Positions 47,504-50,100 of a DNA stretch of 64,000 nucleotides are shown one piece after another. Made by a program: the position numbers and the translations under genes. Where the stretch lies: positions 416,001-480,000 of the forward strand of contig RDOB01000002.1 in assembly GCA_011364965.1 (NCBI GenBank), written 5' to 3'. Origin of the DNA: Candidatus Heimdallarchaeota archaeon (GTDB lineage: Archaea; Asgardarchaeota; Heimdallarchaeia; Hodarchaeales; Hodarchaeaceae). Position 1 is the stretch's first letter. Each line of letters starts with the position of its first letter. Under the pieces are notes generated by a model. It saw only the letters and a program-made list of their open reading frames with translations, searched no databases and was not told the DNA's origin.

Positions 47504-49138
47504 ATGAATTCAATCGAGATGAATGTAACTAAAGATGGTAAATGGAATTGGTTGAAATATAAGCTATTCTATGGCGGAACTTTCAAAGGAATGATCACCT
47601 TCACTATTGTATATTTATTTGTGATCACCCTCTTTCTTTCAACTTTTTCTAAACCAGTCGTGGACCTTCTTGGAGCACCATTACTACCATTTTACTTTAG
47701 TGGCTCTACTGAAGATTTAATGGCGTTTTCTGCCCGTGTTGTGCTATTGTATCATGCAATAACGGTGCCTTTCCTTGCAATTTGTACATACTTTGTATTA
47801 GAGTACTGCGATGTCCGAGAAAAATTAAAATCCCGAATTAAATGGCCATTATTTTTCGGAAGTCTTTTAGCATCAGGAGCTGGAATGTTATATGCTTACT
47901 TTTTCACTGAAGCTTGGATAATACACGGTTTATACCTAGTAGGATTATCACTCTGTTTTTATGCAGGTGTTATCCTCCTTATTGCTGTCTTTCCGTCCAA
48001 AAATTTTCCTAAGAATTGGACTAAACAAGAAAATAAAAATAATATTTTATTTGAGCAATTAGCTTTAGTAACGATAACTATTTGTATCTTAGTGACAGTA
48101 TTTCTTGGAGCAGCAATCGGAGCTTATTTTGGCGTTGATGAGATGTCTGCATTCTTAGCAGAATATTTCCTTCGAGATCCTATAACAGAGCTTCCTTATC
48201 CCTATTTGGTCGCAGATCTCTTTGTAGATGGGATTAAAGGCCACTTACATGCAATGTTGGGTCAAATCGATGTTGTCATCCTCCTTGTGGTATTCAGATA
48301 TACAATGGGTGATATGCCTAAAGGAAAATGGCATCTGCTAGCTATGATTCTAGCGATTCCTGGGGCTTTTTTTATGTCATTGGGTTGTTGGTTTGTTACC
48401 TTCAAATCTGTCGTTCCAATAGTCACATTTGGAATTTTACAGGAATGGCCATTTGATATGCACTACTTAATCTATGTCGGAGCAGCAATTCTCGTCACTG
48501 TAGGCGCGATGTTGGCCCTTATGGGTTGGAATAAAATCGCTAGGAAAGAACTGGGTGATGCTTATGAATCAGCTACTTGGGGTACCCGTATAAAAGTAAT
48601 ATTCAAAGATCCTGTTAAATTTACTCTCTATTTCCTATTCTTATGGGTAAATATCGTGATGACATTTAGTGGTATCTTCCTAGCATTAAGTCTATATGAT
48701 GAATCTGTGCTAGCTAGAGTTCTTCCATTTTTGTCGTTCCGATCGGGTCCTCTTGCAGTTGAAACTACTGTTGCTCGTGGTCACTGGCACATTTTAGGAG
48801 CTTTATCAGCTGTTATATTATTCTTACTCTTCGTTGATATTCTTCGTATAGAAGGTAAGACACGTAAGGTAATGGGATGGCTAATGCTGGCAGGAAGTAT
48901 TTTCGCTTTCCTTTCTGGAATGCTTTATCTCTATGTTCCCCACCTTGATCAGAATTGGGCAAATAATCACGAGTTGTACGTTGACGTGCAGGAATTCTGG
49001 CAAGTGAATGCTCCATGGCTACCCCTCCTTTTAGATTTTGGAATACTTCTTATTGGCATAGCACTTGTCATCTTCTGCTTCTATGAATTGATTCAAATCA
49101 TCAACGGAAGACGAGATATCCATGCATTTCCCGAATGA
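47504..49138 (+). CDS. 12-TM His-rich membrane protein, heme-copper oxidase subunit I-like fold without CuB ligands
   Basis: TM2 LLYHAI, TM4 IIHGL, TM6 KGHLHAM, TM8 DMHYL, TM10 RGHWHIL; three 4-TM units; no HPEVY or HH motif. Confidence 0.7.
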   Translation: MNSIEMNVTKDGKWNWLKYKLFYGGTFKGMITFTIVYLFVITLFLSTFSKPVVDLLGAPLLPFYFSGSTEDLMAFSARVVLLYHAITVPFLAICTYFVLEYCDVREKLKSRIKWPLFFGSLLASGAGMLYAYFFTEAWIIHGLYLVGLSLCFYAGVILLIAVFPSKNFPKNWTKQENKNNILFEQLALVTITICILVTVFLGAAIGAYFGVDEMSAFLAEYFLRDPITELPYPYLVADLFVDGIKGHLHAMLGQIDVVILLVVFRYTMGDMPKGKWHLLAMILAIPGAFFMSLGCWFVTFKSVVPIVTFGILQEWPFDMHYLIYVGAAILVTVGAMLALMGWNKIARKELGDAYESATWGTRIKVIFKDPVKFTLYFLFLWVNIVMTFSGIFLALSLYDESVLARVLPFLSFRSGPLAVETTVARGHWHILGALSAVILFLLFVDILRIEGKTRKVMGWLMLAGSIFAFLSGMLYLYVPHLDQNWANNHELYVDVQEFWQVNAPWLPLLLDFGILLIGIALVIFCFYELIQIINGRRDIHAFPE

Positions 49139-50100
49139 TTAATAAAATCGTAAAGGATGCCGAAATGACAACAATTAATGGGGATAATGCAAATAACAAA
49201 AGATCCCCTTTTCTTTTTTTATCTTTTCAAATGTATTTGCATTTGATAAAGGCTAAACAAACAATTTTATTAGTCTATACAACAGTTTTTGCATATCTGA
49301 TAACTGCTTTACAATTCACATTCGATATTTTTACATTTTTATGGGTTTTTATCTCCGTTACATTAGCTGTATCGGGGAGTACCTTGTTTAATATGTATAT
49401 TGATCGTGATATTGATGCTATTATGGAAAGAACACAAAATCGACCTCTTCCCAGTGGAAAAATTGCTCCATCCACAGTTCTAAAGCATGGTTTCTTTTTT
49501 ATTGGAGCAGGTCTTATATTCTCTTTGTTGTATCTTAATATTTTGACAACATTTGTGATTTTTCTAGGATTTTTTTTTGATGTTATTATCTATTCCCTAA
49601 TTCTCAAAAGAAGAACCAAATATTCCATAATATTTGGAGGTATTGCTGGAGGTTTACCTGCGTTAGCTGGAAGGACAGCTGTTATAAATAGTGTTGATTT
49701 AATTGGTATTTTGCTCGGGTTATTTGTAGTAGCATGGATTCCATTACACATTCTCACTTTAGCTCTTCTACCAATAAATTTGAGAGATTATACAAAAGCA
49801 AAAATACCAATGTGGCCTGTTGCAAGTGGTGAAAGACAAACAATCCGAATAATTACTTTATCAGCAATCATTTCAGCCATTTTAACCATTATTACTGGAT
49901 TTTTATTAGAGATTGAATTAATATGGTTAATTCCATTACTTTTTTTTGGTTCATATATTCTAGCTATTGCTCTAAGAAATCTTTCATCGCCTACTACTCC
50001 TAGAACATTTAAACTCTTTAAAGCAGCATCAATTTATATGGCTCTTACGTTTGTCTTATTATTTATTGGCTTACTAATAACCATTGCTCCATATAGATAA
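49135..50100 (+). CDS. ctaB: Protoheme IX farnesyltransferase (heme O synthase)
   Basis: NMYIDRDIDAIMERTQNRPLPSG, YSLILKRRT, WIPLH, DYTKAKIPM; ATGA overlap with the upstream gene. Confidence 0.93.
   Translation: MINKIVKDAEMTTINGDNANNKRSPFLFLSFQMYLHLIKAKQTILLVYTTVFAYLITALQFTFDIFTFLWVFISVTLAVSGSTLFNMYIDRDIDAIMERTQNRPLPSGKIAPSTVLKHGFFFIGAGLIFSLLYLNILTTFVIFLGFFFDVIIYSLILKRRTKYSIIFGGIAGGLPALAGRTAVINSVDLIGILLGLFVVAWIPLHILTLALLPINLRDYTKAKIPMWPVASGERQTIRIITLSAIISAILTIITGFLLEIELIWLIPLLFFGSYILAIALRNLSSPTTPRTFKLFKAASIYMALTFVLLFIGLLITIAPYR

Follow-up and report, generated by a model that had tools for sequence, protein, structure and literature searches.

The stretch of DNA analysed here, hereafter the window, spans 64,000 nucleotides (nt) and corresponds to positions 416,001 to 480,000 of the forward strand of contig RDOB01000002.1 from Candidatus Heimdallarchaeota archaeon (assembly GCA_011364965.1). 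Calling of open reading frames (ORFs) and their translation revealed three close-set genes on the plus strand, located at 46724–47488, 47504–49138 and 49135–50100. The second of these, here referred to as X, is open throughout and encodes a protein of 544 amino acids (aa) with 12 helices, a predicted haem-copper oxidase (HCO) subunit-I fold and seven invariant histidines, in which the His-His pair of the seventh transmembrane helix (TM7) is absent. The third gene encodes a haem O synthase-like UbiA prenyltransferase of the CtaB/CyoE type (321 aa; PF01040, TIGR01473) that belongs to an X-linked lineage. Since this separate CtaB lineage adjoins X even in genomes without an ordinary oxidase, X probably marks an undescribed haem-O-dependent membrane redox enzyme.

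The start of X is preceded by a 15-nt spacer (47489–47503, plus strand) with a GAGGT ribosome-binding-like box ahead of its ATG. At the other end of the gene, the initial annotation had described the stop of X as overlapping the start of ctaB. The tetranucleotide ATGA at 49135–49138 does combine the TGA stop of X with the first ATG of the CtaB gene. However, a second in-frame ATG at 49165 lies behind an AAAGGA box, the better of the two ribosome-binding-like boxes. Therefore, the overlap may not be used, and the true CtaB start is ambiguous. In relatives, the spacing between both genes ranges from a 4-nt overlap in a Thor locus up to 45 nt in a Heimdall locus.

Neither Pfam nor NCBIfam searches gave a match for X, and a 50-sequence X profile retrieved no PDB sequence even at E 10. 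None of the 50 members of the X family matched PF00115 (COX1) at E <= 1, and none matched Pfam NnrS or any other Pfam family. The structure of X was predicted with AlphaFold2 (AF2) on a 50-sequence homologue alignment from Asgard archaea and bacteria, which yielded a model of 12 long helices with a mean predicted local distance difference test score (pLDDT) of 88.1 and a predicted template modelling score of 0.90. When this model was searched exhaustively against 48,161 PDB representative chains with VIA-align, the ten top chains were all catalytic subunits I of the HCO superfamily. They included CcoN of cbb3 oxidase (3mk7_A; Z 19.6, 409 residues, 4.0 Å) and NorB of the cytochrome c-dependent nitric oxide reductase (cNOR; 4xyd_A; Z 18.7, 407 residues aligned). 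Chains of aa3, ba3, caa3 and bo3 oxidases and of the quinol-dependent nitric oxide reductase (qNOR) gave Z values of 14–18, and the first unrelated chain, a designed protein, followed at Z 11.5. All 26 top Foldseek matches were HCOs or nitric oxide reductases, with weak E-values (best 0.011), and a shape search of the ESM Atlas returned cytochrome o subunit I (template modelling score 0.64). Furthermore, MAPEG proteins matched residues 178–361 of X in VIA-align with Z 10–11, which fits the known resemblance of one oxidase four-helix unit to MAPEG. Combined, X is predicted to adopt the HCO subunit-I fold, as the initial annotation had supposed from the sequence.

Profile comparison of X with itself separated three repeat units, namely residues 22–168, 172–358 and 362–537. 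Units 1 and 2 each match unit 3 (E 2.5e-6 and 1.6e-6, respectively), while the match between units 1 and 2 is weak (E 0.049). Three four-helix units can thus be recognised from sequence. In the repeat alignments, H84, H249 and H429 fall at one position and H247 and H427 at another; judged by motif, the outer ends of TM4, TM8 and TM12 carry H141, H320 and D511 at equivalent sites.

The seven histidines of X lie in the motifs LYH84AI, IIH141G, GH247LH249, DMH320Y and GH427WH429. In the AF2 model, H84 is located in TM2 (residues 69–101), H247 and H249 in TM6 (238–268), and H427 and H429 in TM10 (417–446), whereas H141 and H320 are found at the starts of TM4 (138–162) and TM8 (320–354). In an alignment of 214 relatives, Asgard as well as bacterial, each of the seven is kept in 210–212, which argues against a chance occurrence. 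Nearly invariant in the same alignment are R78, Y83, Y132, E220, R224, M251, N383, R413, E420 and W428, and 198 of the 214 sequences have an acidic residue, Asp or Glu, at position 511. The sequence of X contains neither an HH pair nor an HPxVY motif.

To relate these positions to the oxidases, the X profile was compared with 12 Asgard COX1 sequences by hhalign in local mode. Taken unit by unit, only the last four helices find their counterpart region in COX1 with a score above that of the reversed control (27.3 vs 16.8; E 0.008). In the weak alignment over the full protein, H84 falls on the haem histidine of TM2, H247 on the CuB histidine of TM6 and H427/H429 on the HxH of TM10, and the HH of TM7 in COX1 stands opposite FVTF in X. 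Whether H249 faces the Glu of HPE or the Tyr of HPxVY hinges on a 2-residue gap in this alignment. By alignment and conservation, H84, H427 and H429 supply the TM2 His and TM10 HxH expected of haem ligands, while the CuB/FeB ligand set is incomplete, with the TM6 histidine present and the TM7 His-His pair missing. The architecture proposed by the initial annotation, with 12 TMs in three four-TM units, histidines in TM2, TM6 and TM10 and at the starts of TM4 and TM8, and neither HPEVY nor HH, was reproduced by the motifs as read, the AF2 helices, the repeat E-values and the 214 relatives. Its description of the protein as copper-free holds as far as the canonical CuB ligand set is concerned, which is indeed missing, but the absence of the metal itself can only be inferred.

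The product of the gene downstream of X was assigned by PF01040 (E 1.2e-45) and by the TIGR01473 haem O synthase equivalog model, to which it scores 224.7 bits with a cut-off of 210.3; the next-best UbiA family reaches 55 bits. It also carries the D-x-D-I-D...M-E-R-T...R-P motif typical of CtaB/CyoE. X-linked CtaBs generally score about 195–229 bits to TIGR01473 and thereby straddle the cut-off, compared with 240–351 bits for CtaBs from oxidase-encoding genomes. A maximum-likelihood tree was computed for 119 CtaB domains with IQ-TREE (quick search, LG+G4; the spurious long-branch row L059_211 was kept and sits at the root). In it, all X-linked CtaBs, including that of the window, fall into one 73-row clade with a Shimodaira–Hasegawa-like approximate likelihood ratio test support of 99. 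This clade contains a bacterial sub-clade of 52 rows (support 100) and an Asgard sub-clade of 18 rows (support 99), and it is separated from the 30 canonical Chloroflexota, the COX1-adjacent Asgard and one canonical Bacillota CtaB.

Where COX1 and X coexist in a genome, two CtaBs, one of each kind, tend to be present. The Thermoactinomyces genome encodes one CtaB of 339 bits beside COX1 and another of 213 bits beside X, and four Chloroflexota genomes carry two CtaBs, of 309–326 and 213–228 bits. The lineage was also used as a predictor, with X expected where a low-scoring CtaB occurs among 61 Chloroflexota genomes. X was found in six of them, five of which have a CtaB of 213–228 bits on the same contig, and in no genome whose only CtaB scores >=273 bits, nor in the 16 without CtaB. 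Two further genomes have a low-scoring CtaB (216–219 bits; G224:C9:210018-210845 and G242:C87:3896-4720) and no X was detected in them. Separately, a tandem pair of full-length X-linked CtaBs adjoins X in two Hodarchaeales-type genomes (G190:C13:26838-28756 and L019:11649-13699).

X also occurs outside this archaeon. When one genome from each of 185,579 species was scanned, at least 585 X loci were identified, mostly in anaerobes. The best 80 of these at least 585 loci come from Heimdall-, Hod-, Hermod- and Thorarchaeota among archaea and, among bacteria, from Anaerolineae and other Chloroflexota, Aminicenantes, Symbiobacteriaceae, Ignavibacteria/Melioribacteraceae, Calditrichia, Bacteroidales, Spirochaetota, Neomarinimicrobiota and the one Thermoactinomyces genome. 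A separate protein search found a homologue in Odinarchaeota, and in an exhaustive protein search with X, 46 clusters at 50% identity reached E 1e-10. ORFs were then called in 83 non-redundant X loci and the neighbours clustered. The commonest neighbour was a CtaB-like gene (68 of 83 loci), which lay on the same strand as X every time. Of the loci whose downstream flank measures 2.5 kb or more, 11 of 13 from Asgard archaea and 44 of 49 from bacteria (55 of 62 in total) have a same-strand CtaB-like gene no more than 3 kb downstream of X.

The relation to canonical oxidases was surveyed in 201 evenly drawn Asgard genomes, in which X occurs in 35, COX1 in 13 and both in eight. Accordingly, 27 of the 35 X carriers lack COX1, and these include a one-contig genome and several that are 97–100% complete. 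A CtaB-like gene (E <= 1e-30) is present in 41 of the 201 genomes, among them 32 of the 35 X carriers, and in 25 of the 32 genomes having both, X and CtaB lie within 5 kb on one contig. The three X genomes without CtaB contain only fragments or weak X matches. Conversely, nine genomes have CtaB and no X; five of them encode COX1 and four encode neither, three of these four belonging to a genus whose relatives carry distant X-like matches.

The genome from which the window derives is an assembly of 2.97 Mb in 16 contigs that is 87% complete and contains one copy of X. In this assembly, searches found no COX1, COX2 (PF00116), CtaA (PF02628), cytochrome bd subunit I or MqnA. With COX1, COX2, CtaA and cytochrome bd all missing from it, X is the only visible candidate recipient of haem O. 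The initial annotation had noted that no subunit II/CuA or ctaA gene lies in the window, which extends to the whole 87%-complete assembly; it had also proposed to examine the linkage of X homologues to ctaB and their co-occurrence in genomes without canonical HCOs, and the surveys described above find both.

The first gene of the operon (46724–47488, plus strand; alternative start ATG at 46757) encodes a 254-aa membrane protein with six helices (P0003), for which Pfam and NCBIfam searches gave no match. Its AF2 model has a pLDDT of 88, and a fold search with it returned generic helical bundles only (best Z 9.7), none above the bundle background. A complex prediction of X with this neighbour and two haems scored 0.00, which is no verdict and counts neither for nor against binding. 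Homologues of the 254-aa protein (cluster 4) are found near X on the same strand in 41 of the 83 loci, archaeal as well as bacterial. Two further families without a clear Pfam assignment, a six-helix membrane protein of ~205 aa and a membrane protein of ~150 aa, lie near X on the same strand in 45 and 13 loci, respectively, and are candidate small subunits. Examples are L082:9120-9743, L082:13308-13916, L082:13913-14395 and L012:9174-9989; the ~205-aa family often occurs in two copies, and the operon of the window contains neither family.

In bacteria, an exported lipoprotein with an FGE-sulfatase domain is encoded between X and CtaB in 47 of 63 loci, compared with none of the Asgard loci. This FGE-like lipoprotein (L082:11494-12405, L008:9458-10369, L009:6630-7583 and 44 more bacterial loci) has too few cysteines for a true formylglycine-generating enzyme (FGE). 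In a metagenome-assembled genome of Caldithrix (L078:140-9967), the same contig carries two tandem blocks of FGE-like, CtaB and small-subunit genes that flank X, which suggests duplication of the whole module.

Upstream of the operon, the plus strand of the window carries a set of cytochrome c maturation (Ccm) genes at 40262–45227 (CcmF-like, CcmE-like, CcmC-like, CcmA and CcmB) and, at 36156–37754, a multihaem c-type cytochrome with 7 CxxCH motifs, a possible electron partner. An HxlR-type regulator is encoded on the minus strand at 35430–35915; all of these were assigned by Pfam. The HxlR gene, the seven-CxxCH cytochrome, a glycosidase-like gene and the Ccm set recur in Heimdall, Thor and Odin loci, and some Anaerolineae have two multihaem cytochromes together with CcmABC-like genes near X. 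The glycosidase-like gene of the window (38038–40242, plus strand) encodes a 734-aa six-hairpin protein between the multihaem cytochrome and ccmF, with weak matches to GlcNAc 2-epimerase, GH88 and GH76; the Heimdall, Thor and Odin loci (L002, L003 and L005) have it in the same place. Directly downstream of the operon on the other strand lies a full-length EutA-like gene (50759–52210, minus strand; PF06277, 452 bits) beside a calcineurin-like phosphoesterase; no further ethanolamine-utilisation gene was noted among the ORFs scanned at 31659–58868.

Regulators near X comprise Crp/FNR proteins in 26 and TetR in nine bacterial loci and HxlR in 14 Asgard loci, with HxlR directly upstream of X in the Thor and Odin loci. 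An N-terminal Cys cluster is present only in the Symbiobacteriaceae/Bacillota versions of the Crp/FNR regulators beside bacterial X. Therefore, these regulators do not point to one common sensed signal.

The supply of haem in these organisms deserves separate mention. HemB (PF00490) and HemC (PF01379) were not found in this genome, in four X-bearing Asgard genomes, one of them closed, or in a closed Anaerolineaceae chromosome (G000, which is this genome, G026, G075, G005, G136 and G201). HemB occurs in four of the 35 X carriers of the Asgard sample and in two of six X-bearing bacterial genomes. Carriers without HemB and HemC, enzymes of the trunk pathway shared by all tetrapyrroles, still encode Ccm, c-type cytochromes and CtaB and, judged by gene content, look like haem auxotrophs. 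However, only 11 of the 201 Asgard genomes have HemB at all, and lacking it therefore does not set X carriers apart.

Based on these data, we consider it fairly likely that X is a haem-O-dependent redox protein with an oxidase fold, which would form the core of an undescribed branch of the HCO superfamily and be served by its own CtaB. The predicted HCO fold, the loss of the TM7 pair, the linkage to CtaB and the lack of a canonical oxidase in the genome make X the best candidate for a new CtaB client. As for its activity, we tentatively propose that X is a reductase whose substrate would be a small oxidant (O2 or NO) and which would act in scavenging or low-level respiration in anaerobes. This function is preferred because haem O in known systems is found at catalytic high-spin sites, because the proximal histidine and part of the distal pocket are conserved in X, because the nearest structures, CcoN and NorB, take electrons from c-type cytochromes, which are encoded near X in some loci, and because the regulators near X are of redox or stress types. 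A more specific version, a catalytic O2/NO reductase without the canonical copper site in which haem O works together with a third haem or with a metal site rebuilt from His and Glu, seems doubtful.

In the proposed mechanism, X and the CtaB paralogue would be co-transcribed, and CtaB would farnesylate haem b to give haem O. A low-spin haem would be held between H84 of TM2 and H429 of TM10, as in every HCO, while a second haem, probably haem O, would sit on H427 of TM10. The CuB/FeB pocket would have been rebuilt through loss of the TM7 His pair and gain of the TM6 HxH (H247/H249), and the outer side would be lined by the invariant residues H141, H320, E220, E420, R78, R224 and R413. Where genes for c-type cytochromes lie close by, these proteins would supply the electrons, as they do for CcoN and NorB; elsewhere quinol would.

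Several observations weigh against this interpretation. Over its whole length, the hhalign alignment of X to COX1 is collinear over 428 columns, but with E 0.008–0.016 and a probability of 3–5%; a reversed control scored lower, whereas two of 12 block-shuffled controls equalled the real score. The profile comparison with Cox1 thus upholds the relationship for the last four-helix unit, while the full-length match stays within the range of the shuffled controls. Sequence similarity to COX1 being marginal, homology of X to the HCOs depends on the predicted fold. X is the most likely client of haem O synthase, yet its binding of haem O is read from gene linkage. The proposed mechanism assumes that the histidines would face each other or a pocket. 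The copper loss is itself debatable, since the three extra invariant histidines and invariant Glu could form another metal site. Missing oxidase genes do not prove absence because the genome is 87% complete, and the HemB/HemC gap leaves room for a role of X in haem salvage. Finally, when only loci 15 kb or longer are counted, five of 13 Asgard and four of 30 bacterial ones (nine of 43 in total) have a cytochrome with four or more CxxCH motifs near X. Therefore, a c-type cytochrome donor is not general, and island-wide extracellular electron transfer as the general function of X was down-weighted, multihaem cytochromes being present in about one fifth of these long loci.

The same evidence bears on other explanations of X. 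One of them, which follows the electron carrier suggested by the initial annotation, regards X as a pure electron-transfer protein that has no catalytic site and in which all haems, perhaps three with one per four-helix unit, are bis-His ligated and connect the quinone pool with extracellular multihaem cytochromes. The seven invariant histidines would suffice for three such haems, and the TM6 HxH repeats that of TM10, whose two histidines ligate different haems in oxidases. In addition, a surface multihaem cytochrome and Ccm genes share the island with X here, as they do in the Heimdall, Thor and Odin loci and at some loci of Anaerolineae. However, such a cytochrome is near X in just the five Asgard and four bacterial long loci mentioned above. 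Both haems lie at equal membrane depth in HCO structures, hence the fold by itself does not carry electrons across the membrane, and a simple relay would leave the conserved dedicated CtaB unexplained, given that haem O is known from catalytic high-spin sites. We therefore regard this explanation as rather unlikely.

An improbable alternative is that X handles haem, either by importing it or chaperoning it to CtaB in haem auxotrophs or by modifying haem O further, as a functional counterpart of haem A synthase. It would fit the absence of HemB from 31 of 35 X-bearing Asgard genomes, four of six X-bearing bacterial genomes and this genome, and that of HemC from all five genomes searched for it, as these cells must acquire haem and yet encode Ccm, cytochromes c and CtaB. 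The mid-membrane and outer-end histidines also recall the two His tiers of haem-trafficking proteins such as CcsBA and CcmF, which is a lead only. Against this, the predicted fold matches an oxidase subunit that binds its cofactors stably and not a known transporter or CtaA, X has no match to PF02628, and the scarcity of HemB across the Asgard genomes makes its absence uninformative about X in particular. Moreover, a maker or modifier of haem O still needs a client, and none is visible in the COX1-free genomes. Still less probable is the reuse of an oxidase-like fold without haem, for instance as a metal or small-molecule transporter, with the linked UbiA enzyme prenylating a non-haem substrate. 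The X-linked CtaBs do score around the TIGR01473 cut-off and well under those of oxidase genomes, and X itself has no sequence-family match, but for the UbiA gene no other model comes close to that of haem O synthase, the CtaB/CyoE-type motif is present, and X retains exactly the histidine positions that hold two haems in oxidases.

If X is indeed the haem-O-dependent redox protein favoured here, the consequences reach beyond this locus. To our knowledge, haem O synthase has so far had essentially one purpose, the supply of HCOs. That an ancient and distinct CtaB lineage is associated with a protein of oxidase fold lacking the copper ligands suggests that farnesylated haem has another use, so far unstudied. 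Were X the catalytic O2/NO reductase without the canonical copper site, many Asgard haem O synthase genes that are read as signs of aerobic life would serve X instead. Surveys count haem O biosynthesis as O2-dependent and report it in all Heimdallarchaeia lineages (bioRxiv 10.1101/2024.07.04.601786). As 27 of the 35 module carriers lack COX1, this marker needs to be re-read when the oxygen physiology of the archaeal ancestor of eukaryotes is considered. That most carriers lack HemB and HemC raises the question of their haem source. The X family further offers a testable intermediate between single-haem HCO homologues and the true oxidases and nitric oxide reductases, and a copper-independent reductase, if that is what X is, would be a living representative of a pre-copper or copper-independent respiratory oxidase fold.

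Among known systems, X can be compared with the HCO-homology (HCOH) families. Pei, Li, Kinch and Grishin reportedly described these in 2014 as three-unit, 12-helix relatives of the oxidases that include NnrS; most three-unit HCOH families reportedly keep two histidines and may bind one haem. X resembles HCOH proteins in its three-unit, 12-helix organisation without the full six-His set, in having a last unit that is the most oxidase-like, and in the resemblance to MAPEG trimers. In contrast to these families, X keeps seven histidines. We know of no linkage to haem O synthase described for HCOH families, and our literature searches found no description of the X family or of an X-CtaB operon. 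NnrS occurs with the FGE-like NirV and the Crp/FNR-type NnrR in denitrifier loci (PMC10356946). The bacterial X loci, with their 12-helix X, FGE-like lipoprotein and Crp/FNR regulator, parallel this nnrS/nirV/nnrR arrangement, which we take as a lead only.

CtaA/Cox15 is likewise a His-rich polytopic protein built of repeated four-helix units, binds haem O and has its gene beside ctaB. However, CtaA has eight helices in two bundles and matches PF02628, whereas X has 12 helices, a predicted oxidase fold and no such match, and CtaA was not among the top structural matches of the X model in the 48,161 chains.

The best structural matches, CcoN of cbb3 and NorB of cNOR, share with X the 12-helix core in three four-helix arcs, the TM2 histidine and TM10 HxH for two haems, and the TM6 histidine. 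Both are supplied with electrons by c-type cytochromes, genes for which also occur in the neighbourhood of X at some loci. Unlike them, X lacks the TM7 His-His pair and possesses the extra invariant histidines 249, 141 and 320, and it has neither a Pfam COX1 match nor genes for CcoO/CcoP or NorC subunits. A subunit II partner was not found either, as PF00116 is absent from the genome assembly and the operon partners of X are small membrane proteins of no known family. The cbb3 and cNOR enzymes use haem b and need no haem O synthase, while X travels with one.

The usual clients of CtaB are the A- and B-family oxidases. Subunit I of aa3, bo3 and ba3 has the fold predicted for X (Z 16–18), and these enzymes depend on the farnesylated haem made by CtaB/CyoE, as is proposed for X. 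The A- and B-family oxidases have HPxVY with its cross-linked Tyr, the TM7 HH, a subunit II and often CtaA, none of which accompanies X, and their CtaBs fall in clades other than that of the X-linked CtaBs.

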